UHGV virus genome: UHGV-1541059
DNA length: 47,311 nucleotides
Strand: one strand, 5' to 3'
Source of the DNA: a virus
Part shown: piece after piece, positions 3,932 to 44,654 of the stretch
How the letters are laid out: every line of letters starts with the position of its first letter
Position numbering within the stretch: position 1 is the stretch's first letter
Position numbers and translations under genes: made by a program
The notes under the pieces: generated by a model
Seen by the model: only the letters and a program-made list of their open reading frames with translations
Told to the model about the DNA's origin: nothing
The model's database searches: none

Positions 3932-5353
3932 TTAAAAAGATGCGTTATTCTGGTTGTTTCGTGGGGAGAATCGGCTTGTCGCCGGACGTTGTTGCATTGA
4001 CTGGATACAAGCTGACGCCGCGCGTGCCTGGTCGCATGGTAAAATGTTGCCGTTGTCGTCAAACCGCTGGTAAACAGTCCCCGTTTTCCCGTGACGGTTT
4101 TTTGAAACGATGATCTCCATGTATTCGCGGGCAACTGATTGTTCGTTGTAGTAGCCGTCGCGGTAGACCATGATGATCCGGTCTGCGTCTTGTTCAAGAT
4201 TACCGGAATCACGCAGATCGGAATTGTTCGGGCGCTTGTTCGGTCGTTCCTCAACGCGGCGGGATAATTGCGCCAGCGCCGCCACTGGCACGCGCAACTC
4301 TTTCGCCATCATTTTCAATGACCACGACAATTGCCCTACGGCGAGATCATGACGTTCGGCCTTAGCCAGCTTCATTAACCCGATGTAGTCAATCATTACC
4401 ATTCCCAGGTTAGGATGGTCCTGTTTCATCCGTTCGACGGTGGCGCGTATTTCCTCGACCGTTAACTGTGATGCGTCAACAATCCACACATCGAGATCGG
4501 CAAGGGCGCTCATTCCCTGGGCGACGTGCGCCCATCCTTCATCATCAAGTTTTACCGGATTACGTAGGCAATCCGTTGATAAGTTCCCAGCGCCAGCGAT
4601 CGCGCGTTCAGTCATCTGATCGAGTGACATTTCAAGCGTGAACAGTAAAACGCCTACCCGCTGACCTTCTCCGCCAGGGTATGGACGTTCAGCCGCCGCG
4701 CGGGCAATTGCCAGCGCCAATGCCGATTTACCAGACCCAGGGCGTCCGGCGATAAGTACCAGATCAGTAGCGTTAATGCCGCCTAACATTTCGTCGAGTG
4801 GGTCAATCCCTGTTTTGATGTTGTCAGAGTTCACGCCACACTCCATGCGTTTACTTAGCACTTCCGTGTATTCCTGGACCGCATCGCGCAACAGCACCGG
4901 GATAATCTTGTCTTTCGTTACTTTTAATTTTGAATACCGGGAATCAAAATATTTCATCGTCTCCCTGACAACTTCAAGCGTCCCGGTTTCCAGTTTGTAG
5001 CGAATATCTTCCATCAGTTCCAACATTTGCCGACGCTGATATTCCTCCTGTAATAGCGCGGCGTACCCCTTCAGGTTGGCAGCAGATGGACACGATCGCG
5101 CCGTTTGCATTAGCGGGACAAAATTTTCGTTACCGATTTCATCACCGACCATCAGAGCGTCAATAAGGTTTCTGTTTCTTGCTTGCGCCCGGATGATCTC
5201 AAACGCTCGTTTATATAGTGGAATGGTGAAGACTTCAGGATCGAGCGTAGCAAGAACATCTTGCGCGTTAGGAGTAAGCCCGCCCAACAGGAGGCCACCT
5301 ATCACAGCCGCTTCCCGTTCCTGGCGTAATGAGTTTATTTGCTCAGTCACCAT
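3932..5353 (-). CDS. dnaB: DnaB-family replicative DNA helicase
   Basis: Walker A GRPGSGKSALALAIA, DnaB-type N-terminal domain, C-terminal RecA-like core; GGAGG RBS. Confidence 0.9.
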   Translation of the reverse strand: MVTEQINSLRQEREAAVIGGLLLGGLTPNAQDVLATLDPEVFTIPLYKRAFEIIRAQARNRNLIDALMVGDEIGNENFVPLMQTARSCPSAANLKGYAALLQEEYQRRQMLELMEDIRYKLETGTLEVVRETMKYFDSRYSKLKVTKDKIIPVLLRDAVQEYTEVLSKRMECGVNSDNIKTGIDPLDEMLGGINATDLVLIAGRPGSGKSALALAIARAAAERPYPGGEGQRVGVLLFTLEMSLDQMTERAIAGAGNLSTDCLRNPVKLDDEGWAHVAQGMSALADLDVWIVDASQLTVEEIRATVERMKQDHPNLGMVMIDYIGLMKLAKAERHDLAVGQLSWSLKMMAKELRVPVAALAQLSRRVEERPNKRPNNSDLRDSGNLEQDADRIIMVYRDGYYNEQSVAREYMEIIVSKNRHGKTGTVYQRFDDNGNILPCDQARAASACIQSMQQRPATSRFSPRNNQNNASF

Positions 5354-5371: not shown

Positions 5372-6490
5372 TTACAAAATGGAATATTCAGGGTAATAAA
5401 CAAAGCGCCCGATCTCCCCGTGATCAGGACTGTAAATTATTACCGCCGCCAGCCGCCGCGACCGCCAGCCGCCATTCGTTGAATAAGCGTCTTTGCCAGC
5501 TAACGTGCCGTGGTACTCAACAACGCCCAACGATGATTCAATCAGCCGTTGGTGATGCCAGTGTCCACAATGAGCGTAAACAGACGACGACTTGCCGAAA
5601 TCCTCCCGCCAGTCAGAAACGCAGGCAGAAAGTAAATTTTCTGGCTTTTTGATAGTGTGCCCGTGGTGGTAAGCAAGAAATGTTTTGCCGTACTGTGTGT
5701 GATGGACGATAGCAGGTGACACATCAACCGTCACACGCGGTTCATCTTCGTAAAAAGCCGCCAGCGCAGCACGTAGCCAGATCATACCTGATTGGTCGTG
5801 ATTACCGGATAATACCTGGATCTCGACATCCTTATGATTTAGTAACATCTTCCCGACCGCACGCCGGACCGACCGGATCGCCACATAAACCAGTTTTGCG
5901 TAGCGTGAATCACAATCTAAAACGTGATTACTTGATGGCGTCACTGGTAACAGGCCGTCAGTGTGAAGCACATCACCGCCGAGAAGCAAAACAGCCTTTT
6001 CAGACATTGGCGCAGCGCCTACCGCGTAGTCGAAGAAGTCATTTAGCACGCGTTCAGCGATCCCGGTGTCGTAGCTCTCACCGCATTCAGCTTTATGAGC
6101 AAGCGCCCCGATATGCAGATCGAATACCGGATAAAGGGCCAGGCTTTTTTGAAAATCAATTTCCGGCACTGGCACGGCCTCCGCGCGGGGTATTTCTTCC
6201 GTGAAGGCGTCACAAGCAGATTGCATTAGCATTTCCATTTCATCGCGGTCACGGGCTGTTTTAATCCAGCTCATAATCACATTGCCATCCTTATCGACGA
6301 GCAATGACTCAGCATTGACGCCAAAACCCGGTGCGCGGCGCGTGGATATTAAACCGCGTTTCGCCAACCGTGCGCCCAGGCGTTCGACGTTGCGTTTTGC
6401 CATGCCATATTTTTCTGCGATCTGTTTATACGTCAGACCGTTATTATGTTCAGCGATTAACTGTTCATCGCTGATCTTTCTTTGTGACAT
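5372..6490 (-). CDS. Protein with N-terminal HTH fused to a calcineurin-like metallophosphoesterase domain
   Basis: HTH LTYKQIAEKYGMAKRNVERL; phosphoesterase motifs DLH, GGDVLHTDG, GNHD, HCGHWHH; GGAGG RBS. Confidence 0.6.
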   Translation of the reverse strand: MSQRKISDEQLIAEHNNGLTYKQIAEKYGMAKRNVERLGARLAKRGLISTRRAPGFGVNAESLLVDKDGNVIMSWIKTARDRDEMEMLMQSACDAFTEEIPRAEAVPVPEIDFQKSLALYPVFDLHIGALAHKAECGESYDTGIAERVLNDFFDYAVGAAPMSEKAVLLLGGDVLHTDGLLPVTPSSNHVLDCDSRYAKLVYVAIRSVRRAVGKMLLNHKDVEIQVLSGNHDQSGMIWLRAALAAFYEDEPRVTVDVSPAIVHHTQYGKTFLAYHHGHTIKKPENLLSACVSDWREDFGKSSSVYAHCGHWHHQRLIESSLGVVEYHGTLAGKDAYSTNGGWRSRRLAAVIIYSPDHGEIGRFVYYPEYSIL

Positions 6491-7942: not shown

Positions 7943-8197
7943 TCATTCCTCCGGCAATGCAATATCATAAATGTCGCCGTATTCGTCAGCGCGTTTAATG
8001 AATCCTTTGCGGATCAATGAATTTAATGCGTCAACAGTAGTATGCAGTGGCAGTTCGCACACTTTTGCGATCTCTTCGCGTGAAGCATGTGCGCGGCCTT
8101 TGTTGTCTGCCTTTTCTGCAAACGCAATTAAGACAAGTTTTTGGATCGGGCTGTTAAGTTTTACGTTCCATGCTTCATTCATCATGTGCATACTCAT
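7943..8197 (-). CDS. Small winged-HTH DNA-binding protein, first gene of leftward operon (Cro-like position)
   Basis: LVLIAFAEKADNKG...ASREEIAKVCELPLHTTVDALNSLIRKGFI resembles the HTH_36 fold; AGGAG RBS. Confidence 0.55.
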   Translation of the reverse strand: MSMHMMNEAWNVKLNSPIQKLVLIAFAEKADNKGRAHASREEIAKVCELPLHTTVDALNSLIRKGFIKRADEYGDIYDIALPEE

Positions 8198-8306: not shown

Positions 8307-8339
8307 TCGCTTCGCAGCGACACCGGATTTTTAAAGAGC
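8307..8339 (-). promoter_or_regulatory. nutR-like element (boxA-like GCTCTTTAAAAA plus GNRA-loop hairpin) on the leftward transcript
   Basis: Minus strand reads GCTCTTTAAAAATCCGGTG then hairpin TCGCT-GCGA-AGCGA; lies between divergent promoter region and first leftward gene. Confidence 0.35.
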
Positions 8340-8417
8340 TTAAGGTAAGTGCCTTTTTGTGCCTTCCGTTATCTTTTTCCTTGCGTCTTTGCAAGTATGG
8401 CCTTACCTTGTCTGCAA

Positions 8418-8430: not shown

Positions 8431-8503
8431 AATTTTAAGATCAAGGCTTAAAATACACGTTTTGTGACTTGCATCAAACTTTTTGAGGTTATAGGGTAGC
8501 GAC

Positions 8504-9260: not shown

Positions 9261-9303
9261 GTATACAAAATGGATTGACTCGATGTTTTACGGGGCGTAT
9301 ATT
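9261..9303 (+). promoter_or_regulatory. Strong sigma70 promoter (pL-like) with the 13-bp motif abutting the -35
   Basis: GTATACAAAATGG-a-TTGACT-17 bp-TATATT. Confidence 0.55.
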
Positions 9304-9557
9304 GCGAGTCAAAGGAAGGGCGCAGGTAACAAAAGCAACTTCCTGGCACTTTAAAAATCAGGCTTAACACCTTGTCAACCGTGGAGTAACTCCCCGATTG
9401 GGGACCGAAAGCGGCACTGATAACAAGGCGCATGGGGTGTTTAAAGCGTTACATCCCCCACGAAACCGCACGCAAGGCGACGAGTCAGCTTGCTTGGAGT
9501 GAGCAAGGTCACGCCGGGAACGGCGATGATTGCGGGATTAGTTGAAAGATGTTAAGC

Positions 9558-16863: not shown

Positions 16864-16944
16864 GTTTACAAAATGGCGTCATTGTGTGATGAATGTCACA
16901 TAATGGCGCTTTGCACCTTGTTAGCACGTATCCATTTTGTATAC
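16864..16944. promoter_or_regulatory. Control region upstream of ninF/ninG: inverted pair of the 13-bp motif flanking a CRP-like palindrome
   Basis: GTTTACAAAATGG (16864-16876), TGTGATGAATGTCACA (16885-16900), reverse-complement motif CCATTTTGTATAC (16932-16944). Confidence 0.4.
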
Positions 16945-17021
16945 TTCAAGCAAACAAAATGCTCTTTAAAAATCCGGCAGCGCTGAAATGCGTAGAAATC
17001 ACCTGAAAAGGAGAGAGCATT

Positions 17022-22537: not shown

Positions 22538-22575
22538 GTATACAAAATGGCATTGTTTTGGCAGTGCCATTTTGT
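22538..22575. promoter_or_regulatory. Inverted repeat built from the 13-bp motif in a 100-bp intergenic gap
   Basis: GTATACAAAATGGCA-ttgttttggcag-TGCCATTTTGT, followed by TTATAAAG. Confidence 0.4.
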
Positions 22576-37360: not shown

Positions 37361-38038
37361 ATGATTCATGTTCGAACAGGACAATTTGCGGCGGTGGTAG
37401 ACGGCAGGCGGTATGTGTTTAATCCCTGTTTCGCTGCAATGGCTAAGATCGGCAGTGACAGAGAACTGGTCGAATACTTCGCAACCATCCACGGTGGCAA
37501 ATATCCATCACGATTGCCAGCAGATCCAGACCTACGCAATCGCATTCTGGCGCGGTGTTATGGTGAGATAGTGCAAACGTCAATACACATCCTGAAATGT
37601 TGCTCAGAAGACGAAATAGGCCCGTTATTGGGTGAATGTAGGTTTACTCCTTCCGGCAAATTGCGACTAAAACCCGGACTGATGCCGACCAGTGACGTTA
37701 TCACGCTGGCGCAACATTGCATGTACCACGGGTTAATCGGTGACGGGCCAGAAGAAGACGCCGGAGAGATCCGGGAAGGGGAATATAAGCCGACTTTTAA
37801 CGTGCTGGAATTCGTTTATTCTGCCGTAGCTCACCTGGGATTATCTGAATCAGAAGCGTGGAATATGACAATGACCGGATATAGGGCCGCTGTACGCGCT
37901 AAAACGCCGCCAGACGAAAGAAACGAGAGAAGCAAGCCAAACGTTCACATAAATAAACGTGCTTATGACGAGCAAATGGAGGCCGCTAAAAAGGCACTAG
38001 AAAGAATGAAAAATAGCAAGCAAGAAAAAGCCCGGTAG
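37361..38038 (+). CDS. Putative tail assembly chaperone (G/T position)
   Basis: Single 226-aa ORF between major tail and tape measure; no frameshift partner seen. Confidence 0.35.
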   Translation: MIHVRTGQFAAVVDGRRYVFNPCFAAMAKIGSDRELVEYFATIHGGKYPSRLPADPDLRNRILARCYGEIVQTSIHILKCCSEDEIGPLLGECRFTPSGKLRLKPGLMPTSDVITLAQHCMYHGLIGDGPEEDAGEIREGEYKPTFNVLEFVYSAVAHLGLSESEAWNMTMTGYRAAVRAKTPPDERNERSKPNVHINKRAYDEQMEAAKKALERMKNSKQEKAR

Positions 38039-38046
38039 ATCCGGGC
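38030..38046. terminator. Bidirectional hairpin between convergent genes
   Basis: GCCCGG-tagat-CCGGGC; A-run on one side gives a U-run for the minus-strand transcript. Confidence 0.4.
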
Positions 38047-38053
38047 GTTCATC

Positions 38054-38473
38054 TTATTTGATTCTAACAATATCAATAAAACCGTTACCCAAATCTACAA
38101 TTGCGTGATTTTTTGCACCCGCGCCGCCTTCATTAAAAATTCTTTCCGCGAAAGCAACTTTATTTGCCTTACACTCGTTTGCTATCCTGTTTTTTATTTC
38201 GCTATTATTTTCAAAGACTGCGCCTACAGCGGCCTCGTTTACAAGGCCATAATTAAACCAACGAGCATAAACTGGTTTACCTTCAAATTTTTTATCAATT
38301 GCCTTAAAAAGAATTGCTGGCGCGGCAGGTTCTTTTTTGATCATGTCGTGATATGCGGCTACATGGTTTGCCACTTCTTCACAGTTAATGCTTATGGCCT
38401 CGTTAGCGTTCGCGTTAAATGCGAGTGCGGCAATCACAGTAAGTGCCATTTTTGCTAACCGTTTCATAATCAA
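38054..38473 (-). CDS. Secreted protein, reverse-oriented moron in tail module
   Basis: N-terminal signal peptide MKRLAKMALTVIAALAFNANA; two Cys in mature part; opposite strand to flanking tail genes. Confidence 0.6.
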   Translation of the reverse strand: MIMKRLAKMALTVIAALAFNANANEAISINCEEVANHVAAYHDMIKKEPAAPAILFKAIDKKFEGKPVYARWFNYGLVNEAAVGAVFENNSEIKNRIANECKANKVAFAERIFNEGGAGAKNHAIVDLGNGFIDIVRIK

Positions 38474-38535
38474 CTCCTACCGCTTATTCTAATTTGCTAA
38501 ATGCTTCATTTAACTTAGTTATACACGCATATTGT

Positions 38536-38619
38536 TTATTTTTTAAGTGCTTTTAACATTTCTTCGATGAAGTCCGCATAGCGTTCATGTTCATTGGGGC
38601 GGTAGTTTACGTTTTTCAT
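38536..38619 (-). CDS. 27-aa peptide (MKNVNYRPNEHERYADFIEEMLKALKK) upstream of the secreted-protein gene
   Basis: Strong GGAGG RBS 7-8 nt upstream of ATG on minus strand. Confidence 0.35.
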   Translation of the reverse strand: MKNVNYRPNEHERYADFIEEMLKALKK

Positions 38620-38696
38620 TTTCTTATCCTCCTTCTCTCCCCCCCGGTTAATCCGGCCTTTTAAATCCCTTTGCTCTATCCCTTTCCTTTAGCCTC

Positions 38697-38740
38697 TTTA
38701 TACAAAATGGAGTCGTTACAGTAAAGCCATTTTGTATAAA
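38697..38740. promoter_or_regulatory. Perfect inverted repeat of the recurrent motif; candidate divergent promoters for tape measure (+) and the moron (-)
   Basis: TTTATACAAAATGG-16 nt-CCATTTTGTATAAA; on each strand motif, 1 nt, hexamer, 17 nt, TATAAA. Confidence 0.45.
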
Positions 38741-38777
38741 ATAGAGGCATAGATCACATTTTGTATGAGGTTAAATC

Positions 38778-41120
38778 ATGGCTACCAGTGTAGGTACAAT
38801 TTATTACGAAGTTGATGCAAAAACTGGTCAACTTCTCGTTGCACAACGACAGGCAGACCAGGCCTTTGACCGTATAGAGCGCGGCGCAAAACAGGCTGAC
38901 CGCCAGGTAAACACCCTGAAAACATCCATCAAGGCACTGACCAGGGTTATCCATTTGCTAATTGCTGCGGAGGCTGTGCGCCAATTCATGGATATGGCGG
39001 AGCAAGCAAAAATGCTTCGCGTAAAAATCAAAATGCTTACGGGCGATGCGGAGTCCGCCGGACGGGTTTTTGATGGCCTGAAAGCAATATCAAAAGAAAC
39101 AGGCCAAAGCATGAAGGATACCGGGGATCTGTGGCAAGGCTTAGCTATCTCACTGAAGAACACGTCCGCCACTGAAGGGCAATTGCTTAACCTGGTAGGT
39201 ACGATTCAGAAAATGGGGGCGTTGGGCGGCGCGTCAGCGGAGCAGATGTCAAACTCAATGCGTCAATTCCGTCAGTCTATCGACGGTGGCGTGTTGCGTG
39301 CTGAAGAATTCAACAGCCTGTTAGAAAACACCCCGACCATCGTACAGACAATGGCACGCCAGATGGGGTTATCAATGGGCCAATTCCGCGCCGAAATGCT
39401 GGACGGTAAGATCACGGCAGAAAGGATGGTTAACGCAATCCAGGCGGCTACGCAGGAAACAAACGAGAAGTTTGCGCAGTTGCCGCGCACATCCGGCATG
39501 GCCCTGAATGAGCTTAAAGTCGAGGTTATGGGACTTGTTGAGCAATTGGATGATCTTTTCGGTGTATCCGATACGGTTGTTGCTGGTATCGATCTTGTAA
39601 CGAAAGGTGTTAAGGCTTTAGGTGAAGGCGCTGATTTCGCTAAAACCTGCTTTAACACCCTGAAGACGGCTGGTGGCGAATTCATCGACATGTTTGAAGA
39701 TGTCAGAATCAAGGCTGGCGAGGTAGCCGAGAAGATCATCGCAATGGTGACGCCAATCAAGGCACTAATGGATGCCTACAAATGGATGAAGGAGGTCGTA
39801 GGAGAGAAAACCGACGAATATAACAGCAACTACGAGAAGAAATACGGTAAGACTGTTGGCAAGGTCATGCAACTACAGGATGATCTGACCGCAGCAATCC
39901 AGGCTACAGAAGAAGCAAGGAAAAATGAACAGAATGCCGCCAATGACGGAGCGATTACCGGATTCGACAAGCCAGTAGACAAACCGAAAAAACAGAAAAA
40001 AGAGAAGAAATCTGAAGCTGATCGTCTTGGCGATAAAGGTATAAGCGTTTCTGACCAGTACAACAAAGACGCCGCCGCTATGCGCAAAGCGTTAGAGAAC
40101 GGCAAGGCCATTGATGCTGCATTCGCCCAGGGTAAAATCACTCTCCTTGAGTACCGCGCCGCGCAAAAAGGGATAGGTAAGGAACTGAAGGAAGAATTAG
40201 CGCAAATTCCGGTAGATGAATTGCGTGATAAATGGGCGCAAATAGTAAGCCCGATGGATCAGCTTAAAGGCGAGGTTGACCCTATTCAGCAGGCACAAAA
40301 TGAATGGGCCGTTCGTAAGCAAATGCTTATCGACCTGGGAGCTACCGAAGCGCAACAGAAACAGGAATTGTTAGCCTATGAGCAACAGATCCGCGATCTG
40401 AAGTGGGAGCAGTGGCAAGCGCAAAGCGACACTAACGGCCTGATCGGTGATTGCGTTAATGGCCTTAAAGGTGGTATGAGCAATGCACTTGTTGGCCTGT
40501 TAAACGGTACTCAATCATTAAGCGATGTTTTTGCTAACTTAGGTAGCAATATCCTCGGCAATATTGGTAGCAGACTTTCAGATATAGCCGCTGACTGGAT
40601 AGCAGATCAAATCATGATGGAGACACAAAGCAAGGCCACGCAAGCAAGTACAACGGCGGGCGCGGTAGCGGCGCAAGGCCAGATTGCTGCGGCGGCGGCC
40701 CCGGCGGCGGCGGCAACAGCGGCGTCAACTGGCGGCGCATGGGCTGCGGCTGGTTCTGCGGCACTCACTGCGATCATGTCGCTGGCTACGTCAATTTTCG
40801 GCGGTGGTCGCTTTAATGGTGGTAGCGTTATTGGTGGCAATATGTACCGCGTAGGGGAACACAACAGGCCGGAGCTATTCCAGACATCTAACGGAAATCA
40901 ATATATGATCCCAGGCGAGAATGGCAGGGTTATTCCTGGGCGTGATATTGGCGGTGGCGGCGGCATTAGTATGCCTGTCAATATCAACATTCAGACCACA
41001 AACGGATTTAGCGACGAAGACAGTCGCAGACTTGAGCAAACAATGGAACGTGTAGCAATGAAGATGATAACAAGGGAATCACAAAGACCTGGAGGAATAT
41101 TGCAACCGCGCCGCAAATAA
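38778..41120 (+). CDS. Tail tape measure protein
   Basis: 780 aa, coiled-coil rich, Ala/Gly-rich hydrophobic segment near C-terminus; position. Confidence 0.85.
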   Translation: MATSVGTIYYEVDAKTGQLLVAQRQADQAFDRIERGAKQADRQVNTLKTSIKALTRVIHLLIAAEAVRQFMDMAEQAKMLRVKIKMLTGDAESAGRVFDGLKAISKETGQSMKDTGDLWQGLAISLKNTSATEGQLLNLVGTIQKMGALGGASAEQMSNSMRQFRQSIDGGVLRAEEFNSLLENTPTIVQTMARQMGLSMGQFRAEMLDGKITAERMVNAIQAATQETNEKFAQLPRTSGMALNELKVEVMGLVEQLDDLFGVSDTVVAGIDLVTKGVKALGEGADFAKTCFNTLKTAGGEFIDMFEDVRIKAGEVAEKIIAMVTPIKALMDAYKWMKEVVGEKTDEYNSNYEKKYGKTVGKVMQLQDDLTAAIQATEEARKNEQNAANDGAITGFDKPVDKPKKQKKEKKSEADRLGDKGISVSDQYNKDAAAMRKALENGKAIDAAFAQGKITLLEYRAAQKGIGKELKEELAQIPVDELRDKWAQIVSPMDQLKGEVDPIQQAQNEWAVRKQMLIDLGATEAQQKQELLAYEQQIRDLKWEQWQAQSDTNGLIGDCVNGLKGGMSNALVGLLNGTQSLSDVFANLGSNILGNIGSRLSDIAADWIADQIMMETQSKATQASTTAGAVAAQGQIAAAAAPAAAATAASTGGAWAAAGSAALTAIMSLATSIFGGGRFNGGSVIGGNMYRVGEHNRPELFQTSNGNQYMIPGENGRVIPGRDIGGGGGISMPVNINIQTTNGFSDEDSRRLEQTMERVAMKMITRESQRPGGILQPRRK

Positions 41121-41126
41121 ACGAAA

Positions 41127-41156
41127 CCCCGGTACAATGCCGGGGTTATCTTTTAG
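41127..41156. terminator. Bidirectional intrinsic terminator after tape measure gene
   Basis: CCCCGG-tacaatg-CCGGGG followed by TTATCTTTTAGTT; also downstream of minus-strand gene 41153-41329. Confidence 0.6.
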
Positions 41157-41329
41157 TTATTCTCAAAACTTGTATATCCTCTTTCAATTTTCCCGCCTCT
41201 TACACTTCTTGCAAATACTGCATCATTATGTTTGAAAAATGGTTCAGTATATGTGTCTCCTTTACTATCCATCCATTTCACGATCCAGGCTATACGTTTT
41301 ACATTGCTTTTATTTGCCGGGTTTTTCAT
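41153..41329 (-). CDS. Hypothetical 58-aa protein (reverse-oriented cassette gene 3)
   Basis: GGAGGAAAATAAA-ATG on minus strand; MKNPANKSNVKRIAWIVKWMDSKGDTYTEPFF... Confidence 0.4.
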   Translation of the reverse strand: MKNPANKSNVKRIAWIVKWMDSKGDTYTEPFFKHNDAVFARSVRGGKIERGYTSFENN

Positions 41330-41447
41330 TTTATTTTCCTCCGCAAATTACAATCTTCCGTTTCTGGCTATATAGCTGCGAGAAAACATTACCAACCAAA
41401 TATTCCAGATCTCCCTCCAGGTGAATTTATCGTCCTCCATACCCACC

Positions 41448-41702
41448 TCACTTATGGCAACCGCGAACGCCAGACAATTCATTGAATTTATGGTGTTCAA
41501 CAATCACCCACTCTTTCAGATCCTGGCTATAGACTCGCCAGTCTAAATTGGCGCGGAAGGCGTAGCCGTAACCGTCTTTCAATTTTTTGGGTGACGCATT
41601 CTTGTTTAAAAACGCGTTCAAAAGTTCCTTTGCTTTTTTGACTACATGTCCCGGCGCGTTTTTCTGTGCTTTCAGATTTTTGTCAATCGCTACCAGTTTC
41701 AT
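41448..41702 (-). CDS. Hypothetical 84-aa basic protein (reverse-oriented cassette gene 2)
   Basis: GGGGTGAG RBS; ...GYGYAFRANLDWRVYSQDLKEWVIVEHHKFN... Confidence 0.5.
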   Translation of the reverse strand: MKLVAIDKNLKAQKNAPGHVVKKAKELLNAFLNKNASPKKLKDGYGYAFRANLDWRVYSQDLKEWVIVEHHKFNELSGVRGCHK

Positions 41703-41719
41703 AACTCACCCCATCATCC

Positions 41720-41875
41720 TTAGTTAAGTGCCTTCAGGAAGAAGTCCCGGTATTCATCTTCTTTTGCATTCATCATGAATTGACCGTATTTGAATGCGTC
41801 GTCGAAACCCTTAACGATTGCTATTTCCACTTGTTCGAATGCGTTGTTTAGCATTACCACTACATAGCGTTTCAT
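41720..41875 (-). CDS. Hypothetical 51-aa protein (reverse-oriented cassette gene 1)
   Basis: GGAGG RBS then ATG; MKRYVVVMLNNAFEQVEIAIVKGFDDAFKYGQ... Confidence 0.45.
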   Translation of the reverse strand: MKRYVVVMLNNAFEQVEIAIVKGFDDAFKYGQFMMNAKEDEYRDFFLKALN

Positions 41876-41946
41876 TTTGGGCCTCCTTCGTTGGTACTGC
41901 TTTTCTTCTTGCTTTCTGTATACATCTTGTTGCGAACTATGTGAAG

Positions 41947-41969
41947 CCATTTTGTAAACTAGCTATAAT
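41947..41969 (-). promoter_or_regulatory. Motif copy plus candidate promoter for the 41875-41153 minus-strand cassette
   Basis: Minus strand: GTTTACAAAATGG-c-TTCACA-17 nt-TATACA. Confidence 0.4.
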
Positions 41970-42043: not shown

Positions 42044-42397
42044 ATGCCGGAAGTTTTCAGATGGACGCCGCAAAGAAGCTACAGCGTGACCAGGGAGCCA
42101 AACGTATCTGTCATTAAACTTGGTGATGGGTATGAACAACGCCAGGCGAAAGGGATTAACACATTACTTGATAGTTACACCCTGGTTTTTAAAGGCAGTA
42201 GTGCAGGATGCGGCGATGGTGGGAATGTAGCGATCCAGGCGGAAGCATTCTTGAGGGCGCGCGGCGCTGTCGAGGCTTTTTACTGGTCGCCGTCGATGGA
42301 TAACGTGCAAAGGCTTTTTGTTTGCCGCCGATGGAGCATGACTAAAGACGGGTCTTTGTACACGCTAAACGCAACGTTTGAGCAGGTCGTCAGATGA
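42044..42397 (+). CDS. M: Minor tail protein M
   Basis: FRW...GDGYEQR...FEQVV matches lambda gpM as recalled; 117 aa. Confidence 0.75.
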   Translation: MPEVFRWTPQRSYSVTREPNVSVIKLGDGYEQRQAKGINTLLDSYTLVFKGSSAGCGDGGNVAIQAEAFLRARGAVEAFYWSPSMDNVQRLFVCRRWSMTKDGSLYTLNATFEQVVR

Positions 42398-42594
42398 TGG
42401 AGGTTAATATGTATGGTATTTGTGTAGTGGACCGCACTGGCGCTTTTACATTGTTTGACGACTATGAAATCAACGATCTTACTGTAAAGGCTGATAATGG
42501 CGAGATCTGGTATCTTCATGATGTTGGTGACGGGTATGTCGGATGCAGATCGAGAGAGGGTAGGGAAGTTTTATTTTTACTTGATGGCGTATAA
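42394..42594 (+). CDS. Hypothetical 66-aa protein coupled to M
   Basis: ATGA overlap with M stop; followed by terminator. Confidence 0.4.
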   Translation: MMEVNMYGICVVDRTGAFTLFDDYEINDLTVKADNGEIWYLHDVGDGYVGCRSREGREVLFLLDGV

Positions 42595-42600
42595 ACACGA

Positions 42601-42628
42601 CCCCGCGCGAAGCGGGGTTATTATTATT
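42601..42628. terminator. Intrinsic terminator (bidirectional) between the M operon and the reverse cassette
   Basis: CCCCGCG-cgaa-GCGGGG followed by TTATTATTATT. Confidence 0.6.
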
Positions 42629-42740
42629 CCATTTCCATTAATGCTATATTTTCCGCTATCGTTTTCCAGTCCAGATTTACAGCATGAACACCAAATACTA
42701 TCAATCCCATTGCGATTAGTGCTAAAACTTCGATTTTCAT
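42624..42740 (-). CDS. 38-aa membrane peptide (MKIEVLALIAMGLIVFGVHAVNLDWKTIAENIALMEME)
   Basis: GAGG RBS on minus strand; hydrophobic helix; last gene of reverse cassette. Confidence 0.35.
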   Translation of the reverse strand: MKIEVLALIAMGLIVFGVHAVNLDWKTIAENIALMEME

Positions 42741-42831
42741 AATCAACCTCACTTAATTAAGAAAGGCATAAACGATGGCAATCGCGCCAGCCACTACCAA
42801 AACATTTCGATCACTTCGTCTACTTTATTGA

Positions 42832-43035
42832 TTAAGGTAACTCCACTTCGTTAAATGTAACAAGCACCCCTTGATTTTCTTTATTTATAATTATGAAGGC
42901 ATTAATTGAAGGCAGACATCTTTCCACGCGGTAAACGTCACCAATATCTAAACTGTAATATTCTGTTAATTCTCTATTGTTCCCTTTAGCAAAACCCGTA
43001 AACCTAACCATTTTTTGACCGTCGTACTTTAACAT
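42832..43035 (-). CDS. Hypothetical 67-aa protein (reverse cassette)
   Basis: Minus-strand ORF coupled to upstream gene. Confidence 0.45.
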   Translation of the reverse strand: MLKYDGQKMVRFTGFAKGNNRELTEYYSLDIGDVYRVERCLPSINAFIIINKENQGVLVTFNEVELP

Positions 43036-43043
43036 ATACAGTC

Positions 43044-43292
43044 CTATAGGTTATCACGCAGATAATTAACGCCTTTGTCAGTGACGAATGAGTGATTAAC
43101 CTGGTTTTCATCCGTCATGATGATGAATAACTTTTCCTGTAGGTATTTCGCTTTTGGGTACAGCGTTAAACAGACCTGGTACAGTATCCCGCGCTCAATC
43201 AGCAAATCAATAAATTCGTGCTCATGATAACCGACGAGGCGGGCGGCTTGTTTCAACGTGTACACATAATCGCCGTGATTGCGCCGCCCCAT
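43044..43292 (-). CDS. Hypothetical 82-aa protein, possible HTH (reverse cassette)
   Basis: YTLKQAARLVGYHEHEFIDLLIERGIL resembles a DNA-binding helix-turn-helix. Confidence 0.45.
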   Translation of the reverse strand: MGRRNHGDYVYTLKQAARLVGYHEHEFIDLLIERGILYQVCLTLYPKAKYLQEKLFIIMTDENQVNHSFVTDKGVNYLRDNL

Positions 43293-43301
43293 GTTGCCGC
43301 C

Positions 43302-43652
43302 TTATTTATCGAATGCGCCCAGGTTATCTATGCAGAAGTCTTTCGCAGCTTTTTCGTATTCGCGTTTTGCTTGCGGATCGTCTGCCGGGAAACCTTTTGC
43401 GTGTATTTCACCAGGGCAAGACTGATCCATAGAGTCTGCAAATTCAACATTGACGTTAAAGTTAATATCTTTCGGGTTCATCTCTTCCACCTTATCCGGC
43501 ACTTGCACCGGAGTAATATCAAAATCACGAGCGTTAGACCAACAGCGAAGTAACTCACGACCTTCATCACGCGCTGCGACGTATGTGTCGAACAGGCCCA
43601 TGCGCTCCCATTCACATTTATCAGTCCATATTTCTAAACTATATTTTTGCAT
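43302..43652 (-). CDS. Hypothetical 116-aa acidic protein (reverse cassette)
   Basis: Minus-strand ORF; no recognisable motif. Confidence 0.5.
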   Translation of the reverse strand: MQKYSLEIWTDKCEWERMGLFDTYVAARDEGRELLRCWSNARDFDITPVQVPDKVEEMNPKDINFNVNVEFADSMDQSCPGEIHAKGFPADDPQAKREYEKAAKDFCIDNLGAFDK

Positions 43653-43664
43653 TTTGTTAAACCA

Positions 43665-43820
43665 TCATTTGACAGGTTCGAGTCTGTATCCCAAAACTCT
43701 TTCGTCTTCAGCGAGTAAGAGCGCGTCAGTAAGTGCATCGCCTTCATCTTTATACAGGGCAACAGTCATTTCCCTGCCGTCTGTCAGAAATACCTTCAAC
43801 CTCCACACCTTATCAGCCAT
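43665..43820 (-). CDS. Hypothetical 51-aa protein, first gene of reverse cassette
   Basis: GGAGGTGTGAG-ATG on minus strand; motif copy GTTAACAAAATGG immediately upstream (43835-43847); track ORF extends to 43895. Confidence 0.45.
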   Translation of the reverse strand: MADKVWRLKVFLTDGREMTVALYKDEGDALTDALLLAEDERVLGYRLEPVK

Positions 43821-43949
43821 CTCACACCTCCGCGCCATTTTGTTAACTGTGCTTCCGTTTGAGTAAAATATACATATTGTATAAACCGTGATCAATCCAT
43901 TATGGTATGATTTAGCGTGACGCAGATCACAAAATCAGAAGGTGAGAAA

Positions 43950-44654
43950 ATGCGCAATATACCTACAGAGATGATTATTGATTCCGTGGACGCTGGTGTG
44001 GGCGCGGTGATTGACTTGTTCGAACTGGACTTGTCGCCCCTGGGTGGCGAGGTTATCCGCTTCCATTCCGGAGCGAATGGCTATTACGGCCCGGTTATCT
44101 GGAAGGGCTTAACTTACAACAGCTACCCGATCGAGGCTACTGGCTTCGAAATGAAAAACGAGGGCGTTTATTCGCGGCCTCAAATGGTTGTAGCCAATAT
44201 CGGCGGGCTAATCACAGGGATGAATAACGACTTCAACGACCTGCGAGGAATGAAGGTTACGCGCCGCCAGGTGGAAGTAAAATACCTGGACGCCGTTAAC
44301 TTCCCAAACGGCAATCCAGATGCAGATCCATCTATTGAGGCTGTATCTTTTTACGTCGTGGAGGCCATGAGCGAGGAAACAGCGGATCAGGTGCAATATG
44401 AACTGTCAACACCAATTGATGCTGACAAGGCCGTTATCCCTGGGCGCACCATCCTTGCTGACGTTTGTCAGTGGCAATACAGAGGCGACGGATGTATGTA
44501 CTCTGGCGGACCAGTGGCAAACGATAAAGACGAGCCGACAAGCGATCCTAAAGCCGACAGATGCAGCCACCGTCTAAGCGGTTGTCGTTTGCGTTTCCCG
44601 CGTCCAAATCCGTTACCGATTTCCTGTTTCCCTGGTTCCAGCAAGGTAGGTTAA
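43950..44654 (+). CDS. L: Minor tail protein L
   Basis: ...RRQVEVKYLDAVNFPNGNPDADP... and C-terminal Cys cluster (CQWQYRGDGCMYSG...CSHRLSGC) match lambda gpL; AGGTGAG RBS (track GTG 43917). Confidence 0.8.
   Translation: MRNIPTEMIIDSVDAGVGAVIDLFELDLSPLGGEVIRFHSGANGYYGPVIWKGLTYNSYPIEATGFEMKNEGVYSRPQMVVANIGGLITGMNNDFNDLRGMKVTRRQVEVKYLDAVNFPNGNPDADPSIEAVSFYVVEAMSEETADQVQYELSTPIDADKAVIPGRTILADVCQWQYRGDGCMYSGGPVANDKDEPTSDPKADRCSHRLSGCRLRFPRPNPLPISCFPGSSKVG

Follow-up and report, generated by a model that had tools for sequence, protein, structure and literature searches.

A reverse-oriented five-gene cassette with repressor operator-like sequences in the tail module of an mEpimmI-group coliphage

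Genes and conservation of the cassette

The virus genome UHGV-1541059, whose whole length of 47,311 nucleotides is referred to here as the window, represents a temperate Escherichia coli siphophage of the mEpimmI group (mEp021 relatives), of which mEp021, mEp010, mEp013, mEp044, mEp515, mEp554 and MagusPhagus are named members. This group was described in 2025 as prevalent new gut coliphages having a CI-like repressor, an N-like antiterminator, three nut sites and Q (PMC11893012). In the tail module of the window, five small genes lie on the minus strand as a cassette: p51 (43665-43820, 51 amino acids (aa); gp74 of mEp021), p116 (43302-43652, 116 aa; gp73), p82 (43044-43292, 82 aa; gp71), p67 (42832-43035, 67 aa) and p38 (42624-42740, 38 aa). 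The cassette is an autonomous reverse-oriented accessory transcription unit with moron-like architecture, in which a fixed core of p51, p116 and p82 is followed by a variable 3' cargo slot, occupied here by p67 and p38.

An earlier interpretation from the letters alone (the sequence-only reading) had described five minus-strand genes of these sizes, the last encoding a membrane peptide. The genes are present in the place where it put them, and p38 is a single hydrophobic helix. A plausible ribosome-binding site precedes each of the five (GGAGGTG for p51 and GTGAGG for p38). Since four of the five open reading frames (ORFs) match PHROG families and all five are under purifying selection (dN/dS 0.11-0.25), they are regarded as real genes; Rfam and tRNA scans gave no matches. 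The cassette had also been placed directly between the tail genes M and L. These flanks are correct as M (42044-42397, plus strand; PF05939) and L (43950-44654, plus strand; PF05100), but a 66-aa plus-strand gene (42394-42594; phrog_3249) overlapping the stop codon of M follows the latter, so that the true left neighbour of the cassette is the 66-aa gene and the right one is L, 1.35 kb beyond it. The G+C content of the cassette interval is 0.36-0.47 as against about 0.50 in the flanking tail genes, and its GC skew is negative where theirs is positive.

The 3' end of the cassette is marked by a bidirectional intrinsic terminator (42599-42629), whose hairpin GACCCCGCGCGAAGCGGGGTT at 42599-42619 is detected on both strands. 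On the plus strand it folds with -16.1 kcal/mol (z -3.7), which none of 200 shuffled sequences reached, and on the minus strand with -17.8 kcal/mol, so that folding bears out the terminator that had been claimed at 42601-42628. It is common to the rightward M and 66-aa genes and to the leftward cassette, and a two-way terminator is annotated in mEp021 as well. Together with the promoter described below, the cassette thus has a predicted promoter and a predicted terminator of its own and a deviant base composition, as is typical of morons. In the gap between p67 and p38 (42753-42800, minus strand) lies the remnant of an ORF for a 23-aa hydrophobic peptide, MDKVIENVLVVAGAIAIVYAFMN, which is intact in 13 related loci and has lost its start in the window by a one-base deletion (GAAATG versus GAAAATG). 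A weak hairpin, TGGCGCGATTGCCA, is found within the same interval.

Conservation was counted over 46 related loci, 43 of them from IMG/VR. p116 (61-100% identity) and p82 are present in all 46 and p51 (43-100% identity) in 45, at the same position, while p67 is found in nine and a p38-type peptide in 32. The cassette is therefore not a recent insertion, nor is it peculiar to this genome, and the earlier description of it as inserted does not stand: only p67 and p38 are sporadic. Comparison of related phages at the M-L junction, which had been suggested as a check, gives a pattern of presence and absence only for p67, p38 and a few other inserts, and the core is not, as expected of a moron, present in some and absent in other close relatives. 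The other inserts, located between p116 and p82, comprise a gene for 75-81 aa, seen in five loci, and in a single locus a split HNH endonuclease. In the latter locus (L025, ~4650-5140), the HNH endonuclease (PF13392, E 1.6e-15) is accompanied by a second small ORF between the p116 and p82 homologues, which resembles a homing-endonuclease-type insertion into the cassette.

Homologues of the cassette are annotated in mEp021 (gp71-74), mEp013 (gp96-99), MagusPhagus and E. coli prophages, where they are labelled as hypothetical proteins and a "putative antirepressor", and the cassette sequence is matched in 35 of 5426 complete E. coli genomes. A KilAC gene appears on the list of mEpimmI core genes (PMC11893012). 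Searches for wider homologues of the three core families gave matches confined to E. coli mEpimmI prophages. Segments of the locus recombine freely, the distance matrices of neighbouring parts correlating at 0.03-0.5.

The sequence-only reading had seen a helix-turn-helix (HTH)-like stretch in the 82-aa product, and this proves to be a KilAC domain. p82 matches PF03374 (ANT/KilAC) with 29.1 bits, only just above the cutoff of 25.3 (E 1.3e-6), the match covering its residues 10-82 and profile positions 23-105 of 108. Its RefSeq homologues are named "phage antirepressor KilAC domain-containing protein", and its structure model resembles winged HTH domains of the MerR/Xis (excisionase) type. No second domain was found by Pfam search, neither AntA/B, Bro-N, KilA-N nor pRha, so that p82 lacks the two-domain architecture of Ant-type proteins, in which an N-terminal domain precedes KilAC. 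PDB sequence searches with p82, p116, p51 and the p82 profile gave chance-level matches only, and a scan of species-representative genomes with p82 gave one weak partial match. To our knowledge, the sole functional precedent for a lone KilAC domain is inhibition of the SOS response by the C-terminal domain of AriS. The isolated ANT/KilAC domain of this Listeria protein inhibits the SOS response, and the phage-regulating activity of AriS has been mapped to its N-terminal domain, not to KilAC (PMC9043618). Judged by its modelled fold, p82 could just as well be a small DNA-binding regulator.

p116 belongs to phrog_38567 (E 2e-43) and is acidic, with 25 acidic versus 15 basic residues. It is composed of an N-domain (residues 1-57, beta-beta-alpha-beta) that varies among alleles and a conserved C-module (residues 58-116, DSMDQSCPGEIHAKGFPADDP..EYEKAAKDFCIDNLGAFDK); the AlphaFold2 pLDDT is about 95 for residues 1-50 and below 60 in the C half. 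An exhaustive profile search among 1.84 billion representative proteins found 15 relatives of p116. Several of these are the stand-alone C-modules described below. Also among the 15, the repeat proteins P0111 and P0114, which contain an OmpA-like GHAKGxPADDN motif, were judged to be spurious sums over multiple repeats, and P0110, an unrelated repeat protein, was treated as spurious too. Structure searches with p116 gave no informative match.

Within p116, a predicted internal ribosome-binding site, AGGTGGA, precedes the in-frame Met58 (43479-43493, minus strand), from which a 59-aa product consisting of the C-module would be translated. The sequence GGTGGAA stands 5 nt before the Met58 ATG in 44 of the 46 loci although the encoded residues and the neighbouring third positions vary, the synonymous positions at the AGGTGGA site being frozen in the same number, and stand-alone homologues of the C-module (56-60 aa) begin exactly at the equivalent of Met58. 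Because of this conserved sequence amid varying codons and of these stand-alone modules, an internal start yielding a separate product is likely. Stand-alone C-modules are also carried by unrelated phage contigs, L047 (3962-4292; 121 kb) and L049 (5840-6478; 58 kb), with clusters of small genes around them. A p38 homologue (61% identical) directly follows the module of L047, and in L049 short hydrophobic peptides lie on both sides of the module.

p51, as listed here, is the ATG-start version of a 76-aa ORF, which matches phrog_29559 (E 7e-24) over residues 26-76. It occurs as several alleles (dN/dS 0.22-0.25). By hhalign, p51 aligns with the N-domain of p116 over 45 columns (probability 49.8%, E 1.7e-4), while all other pairs stay below 10%, and p51 is thus a probable paralogue of this domain, as judged from profile alignment. 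Co-evolution of the two was not seen, the correlation of their distance matrices (r 0.32) being no higher than with L, and profile alignment did not support the 51-aa protein of a neighbouring island (island A, below) as another p51 paralogue. The name "transporter" given by NCBI to p51 homologues (WP_097446393.1; L003 4760-4927) is without support, the protein being soluble-looking and having no NCBIfam or Pfam match. p67 matches phrog_14327 (E 1e-5; dN/dS 0.17), and no match was found for it in Pfam, NCBIfam or PADLOC. p38 is a single-pass membrane peptide, MKIEVLALIAMGLIVFGVHAV... (dN/dS 0.17), with two C-terminal types among the related loci. Ipe, the haemolysis-inducing protein of mEp021, was considered as a product of the cassette and ruled out: it is gp29, encoded in the early-right region.

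Promoter P_B and the dispersed operator-like element

For the cassette, promoter scanning predicts a sigma-70 promoter close upstream of L and directed away from this gene, P_B (43867-43895, minus strand), with the -35 sequence TTGATC (43895-43890), a 17-bp spacer and the -10 sequence TATATT (43872-43867); transcription is predicted to start at about 43860. In all 38 distinct related sequences compared, TTGAT and the whole -10 are identical, the sixth base of the -35 being mostly C and in several cases A. Conservation is higher in the region preceding p51 than within p51.

Three operator-like sequences, all read on the minus strand, are associated with P_B. O1 (43895-43907; TACCATAATGGAT, mostly ACCAAAATGGAT in relatives) is a degenerate copy which abuts the -35 and is centred at about -41. 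O2 (43870-43882) is a perfect palindrome of 13 bp, ATACAATATGTAT (in most relatives TTACAATATGTAT), which overlaps the -10. O3 (43833-43845; TAACAAAATGGCG) lies in the 5' leader, just before the ribosome-binding site of p51, and is centred at about +22; it scores 22.8 bits with an 18-bp window matrix. Its core AACAAAA(T/C)GGC is kept in the 38 distinct sequences (one having C for T), and just upstream of the core two have GTC for GTT. Mosaic breakpoints begin right after O3. In one related locus (L037, ~4140-4300), p51 is swapped for an unrelated 52-aa ORF, and the sequence switches directly after the leader copy AACAAAATGGC, so that operator copies seem to mark mosaic boundaries. Farther upstream, at 43916-43931 (minus strand), the palindrome TGTGATCTGCGTCACG resembles a binding site for the cAMP receptor protein (CRP). 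Its arms GTGAT and TCAC are invariant in the 38 sequences while its centre varies; it is centred at about -63, which, by arithmetic from predicted coordinates, differs by 2 bp from the canonical class I distance.

The sequences at P_B belong to a 13-18-bp element dispersed over the phage, with the consensus AAGT[AT]TACAAAATGG[AC]. The sequence-only reading had mentioned a motif-bearing upstream region, and the motif is real and over-represented, since the window has 11 strong copies, a number which none of 100 shuffled sequences reached. Copies lie at or beside promoters at 5372, 6509, 8420, 9263, 9942, 13345/13369, 16862/16930 and 22540/22565, and in the tail module at 38700/38725/38754, 41946, 42017 and 43833/43870/43895; they keep their positions in mEp021 and MagusPhagus. 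The PL and PR regions, which lie on either side of the repressor gene, share no sequence other than this motif and nut boxA. The motif overlaps the -10 of PL (upstream of nutL) and that of a promoter preceding nutR2, and at PR (upstream of nutR1) it abuts the -35, each of the nut boxA sequences (~8325-8345 on the minus strand, 9343-9357 and 16960-16975) lying just downstream of an element-bearing promoter. PR has the same geometry as O1, with a copy at 9263-9275 followed by TTGACT. A layout in which one motif ends at the -35 and a second, partly palindromic copy lies over the -10, 24-26 bp away, is shared by five promoters: PR, P_B, P_A (~41945-41917), P_C (~38725-38697) and the site at 22540. 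Pairs 24-26 bp apart are found at PR, P_B, P_C, 22540/22565 and 13345/13369, and this is the spacing of lambda-type cooperative operator pairs. Homology between PR and P_B beyond the motif was not supported by blastn-short.

Rep021 has been identified experimentally as the immunity repressor, in a report that gives no definition of the mEpimmI repressor's operators (PMC11893012). Two homologues of the window's repressor, in Klebsiella phage KPP5665-2 (52% identical in the alignment, 50.5% by tblastn) and in Enterobacter phage ENT1 (45% identical), have a helix-3 region nearly identical to that of the window's, and the same family of 13-mers is clustered around their genes. In ENT1, four perfect ATAC-N5-GTAT sites lie in the 5.6 kb around the repressor gene, where 0.1 would be expected, and in KPP5665-2 the 97-bp spacer between cI and cro contains three sites, with two more located downstream of cI. 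A matrix built from only these nine sites beside the two foreign repressor genes finds 17 matches in the window versus 3.8 expected, the maximum in 100 shuffled sequences being nine. These matches fall on PR, PL, the nutR2 promoter, the regions upstream of two other reverse islands and the palindrome over the -10 of P_B. Since the foreign sites recover those of the window, the CI-like repressor most probably has the dispersed motif as its operator. O2 scores 16.0 and 15.1 bits with the foreign-site matrix; it is one of two exact ATAC-N5-GTAT matches in the window and is conserved among relatives.

A conventional palindromic operator common to PL and PR was not found, the PL palindrome being unique and the PR inverted repeat not being conserved in mEp021. 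The former, ATTTTAAG-N7-CTTAAAAT (8432-8454), is a palindrome of 23 bp whose centre falls on the predicted -35 of PL; the window has no second copy, and in mEp021 it is kept only in part. It resembles the half-sites of the P22 c2 operator with a different spacing, and a second regulator could bind there, such as the Cro-like HTH_36 protein (7943-8197). The dispersed motif was rejected as a promoter hexamer, a sigma-54 site, an IHF site or a LexA box on inspection by eye. A perfect CRP consensus core, TGTGATGAATGTCACA (16884-16899), is located between two inverted operator-like copies just upstream of nutR2, and CRP-like half-sites, GTGATCTA, precede the promoters at 22540 and 38725.

Two neighbouring reverse islands of the tail module carry the same element. 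Island A (41153-41950, minus strand), between the tape-measure gene (38778-41120, plus strand) and M, has its promoter P_A at ~41945-41917, a terminator at 41125-41147 and genes for 51-, 84- and 58-aa proteins, and it is conserved in 45-46 of the 46 related loci. The 84-aa protein matches ParE_like PF24732 (32.1 bits, cutoff 24.4, E 1.2e-7), and island A is probably a toxin-antitoxin module. In P_A the -35 and -10 are conserved, the spacer is variable and an operator-like motif abuts the -35. Island C (38054-38620, minus strand) immediately precedes the tape-measure gene. It comprises a 27-aa ORF and the gene for a 139-aa protein, which has a signal-peptide-like N-terminus and no Pfam or PHROG match, and it ends at a hairpin at ~38030-38050; its upstream region (38621-38777) contains three operator-like copies (38700, 38725 and 38754), two of them as an inverted pair. 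In island A and in the cassette (island B), an ATG inside the operator-like motif (41950-41948 and 43841-43839, respectively, minus strand) is in frame with the downstream 51-aa ORF, which explains the longer database gene calls of 57-76 aa; neither ATG has a ribosome-binding site.

Proposed control of the cassette and alternative explanations

The genes and their conservation, the promoter, the terminator, the operator-like sequences and the KilAC domain are seen directly. From them we infer repressor binding, the timing of expression and the functions of the proteins. The reading that we favour, and to which we would give an even chance, is that the cassette is an ancestral, family-wide leftward operon under control of the repressor, expressed early rather than in lysogeny, with regulatory or host-directed products. 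Transcription from P_B would proceed through p51, p116, p82 and p67/p38 to the two-way terminator. In the lysogen, the CI-like repressor bound to O1, O2 and O3 would keep P_B shut; once a cell is infected, or once the repressor has undergone RecA-mediated cleavage, P_B would at once become active along with PL and PR. Late in the cycle, Q-modified polymerases would read the tail operon through the terminator and collide head-on with transcription from P_B, and because the cassette is nested antisense in the late tail operon, this late transcription would switch it off. The products would be early proteins, regulatory or host-directed and not structural: p82 might act as a DNA-binding regulator or as an AriS-like modulator of the SOS/RecA pathway, and p51 and p116, as small acidic paralogues, might inhibit or adapt a target of the host or of a competitor. 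An anti-defence or host-modulating role is possible and fits early expression. The assignment of the three operators is predicted from the motif; predicted operator sequences overlap the core promoter, with O2 over the -10 of P_B in a PR-like layout. This layout, the three predicted operators of the CI-like repressor and the palindrome over the -10 argue for silence in the lysogen, contrary to the sequence-only reading, in which the cassette was expressed from the repressed prophage.

Several observations weigh against this early, repressor-controlled operon. O1 and O3 fall under the threshold with the foreign-site matrix, and only O2 passes. In its common form, ATACAAAATGG[AC], the motif is no more than half-palindromic, an unusual property for the site of a CI-type dimer. 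With its centre at -41/-42 of P_B, a repressor could activate this promoter rather than repress it, lambda CI activating PRM from an operator centred at about -41. The CRP-like site would make most sense if expression were to last in a host that stays alive. Lysogens normally express toxin-antitoxin pairs, and with the ParE-like gene of island A behind the same upstream element, this element need not mean silence in the lysogen everywhere. p82 matches only the KilAC part of antirepressors, p116 and p51 are without informative relatives, and the protein functions are guesses.

Because of the possible activation from -41, the island A toxin and the CRP-like site, the main rival is a moron expressed in lysogeny, which we consider rather unlikely: P_B would be active in the prophage, boosted by CRP or by the repressor at -41, for exclusion, defence or conversion, and late antisense transcription would shut it off after induction. 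The cassette has the promoter and terminator of its own, the reverse orientation and the low G+C content of such an element, its variable 3' slot with membrane peptides is typical of exclusion genes, the arms of the CRP-like site are conserved, and O1 stands where lambda CI activates PRM. This rival has to contend with a perfect operator-type palindrome on the -10 in a layout matching PR, which is off in lysogens, and with three core genes that are fixed in the family and not sporadic. For defence in particular, which the sequence-only reading had put forward, no support was obtained: no PADLOC-DB 2.0 family matched any of the five proteins at E <= 0.1, nor did toxin, antitoxin or defence families of Pfam, PHROG and NCBIfam. 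The same absence of family matches disfavours a toxin-antitoxin or abortive-infection module in which the antitoxin would be p51 and the toxin either p116 or p38. Such a module is suggested by the small adjacent genes with the short one first, by island A, 1.7 kb away, where a 51-aa gene precedes the ParE-like toxin (PF24732), and by the size and hydrophobicity of p38, like those of small membrane toxins. p116 is, however, strongly acidic, unlike RNase-type toxins, p51 is a probable paralogue of part of p116 and not a DNA-binding antitoxin fold, and the alleles of p51 and of the p116 N-domain recombine freely, so that we regard this module as quite improbable.

Slightly less improbable is a secondary immunity region like immI of P22 or P1, in which p82 would serve as an antirepressor against the phage's own repressor or that of a co-resident prophage, tuned by p51 and p116. 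The location in the late region behind a regulated promoter of its own recalls P22 immI, p82 is in the ANT/KilAC family that Ant-type antirepressors carry at their C-terminus, and the paralogy of p51 with the p116 N-domain would suit a pair of regulator and counter-regulator. On the other hand, no Arc/Mnt-like ribbon-helix-helix genes are present, p82 is devoid of the AntA/B, Bro-N, KilA-N and pRha domains of characterised antirepressors, and in AriS it is the N-terminal domain and not KilAC that regulates the phage (PMC9043618). Least probable are inverted genes for tail assembly or virion proteins, a case that had been named as refuting the sequence-only reading. The location among tail genes and the family-wide conservation would fit, but the cassette is on the opposite strand and has a promoter and a terminator of its own, its genes would be antisense to late transcription, and p82 has a regulatory KilAC domain. 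None of the five proteins has a tail-family match in Pfam or PHROG, and gp71-74 are not marked among the 16 virion proteins mapped by mass spectrometry in mEp021; no cassette gene is a tail gene.

The favoured reading of an early repressor-controlled operon may be extended, in a form that we hold only tentatively and find somewhat doubtful, to the whole tail module. A CI-type repressor would gate at least three antisense islands of the tail operon (C, the ParE-type A and the KilAC cassette) via dispersed operators in the manner of P1 C1. The M-L island would be a second decision or host-takeover module which integrates the repressor with cAMP-CRP, acts via the lone KilAC domain (for example on RecA/SOS) and the acidic paralogues, and is erased by head-on late transcription.

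Significance and relation to known systems

The genomes and gene calls have already been published, and the mEpimmI report (PMC11893012) does not discuss the operators, the organisation in three islands, the paralogy of p51 and p116 or the internal start. mEpimmI is a common yet neglected group of gut coliphages, whose operators and tail-module reverse islands were previously without analysis. The cassette offers three small conserved, uncharacterised proteins, including a minimal KilAC domain, and if the dispersed operators are real, some "morons" of late operons may be early rather than lysogenic genes.

Among lambdoid phages, HK97 gp15 and lambda lom and bor are known as morons, and classic morons are expressed in the lysogen. 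The pid locus within P22's late region is another example (PMC3573128). Like these, the cassette is an extra unit between late genes with its own promoter and terminator, a deviant composition and a 3' hot spot for small variable genes; unlike them, it is multigenic, antisense to the late operon and fixed in its core throughout the family, and has predicted repressor operators at its promoter. In the noncontiguous operons of Staphylococcus aureus phage 80alpha (tha/ith), genes are likewise nested in the opposite direction (PMC11087260). In both cases genes with their own promoter run backwards in a long operon, and the two transcription states tend to exclude each other via polymerase collision. 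The host operon of 80alpha is, however, the lysogenic cI operon with a single nested inhibitor, whereas here it is the late tail operon with three islands, known from sequence.

P22 immI (mnt-arc-ant) resembles the cassette in having a regulated gene of the antirepressor family in the late region of a temperate phage. The cassette differs from it by its antisense orientation, its predicted control by the primary repressor, the absence of Arc/Mnt homologues and the lack of an Ant N-terminal part in p82. Listeria AriS shares PF03374 with p82, and its isolated KilAC domain suffices to damp the SOS response (PMC9043618). p82 consists of this domain alone (82 aa) and comes from a Gram-negative phage, and the likeness, at 29.1 versus 25.3 bits, is one of sequence.

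As in OR and OL of lambda, several operators of 13-17 bp lie about 24-25 bp apart over the -35 and -10 with cooperative-type spacing, although most copies here are half-palindromic and one site of the P_B set lies within the transcribed leader, at 37 bp from O2. In phage P1, C1 operators control scattered operons including kilA, and the sites of mycobacteriophage L5 gp71 are likewise dispersed. With these systems the window has in common many scattered operators, single or in inverted pairs, that are predicted to control accessory operons outside the immunity region. Unlike them, it has a repressor of the lambda/P22 CI type with an S24 cleavage domain, for which binding is predicted, together with lambda-like PL and PR, N-nut and Q. 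If the dispersed operators are real, a lambda-like immunity repressor controls accessory operons far from the immunity region.

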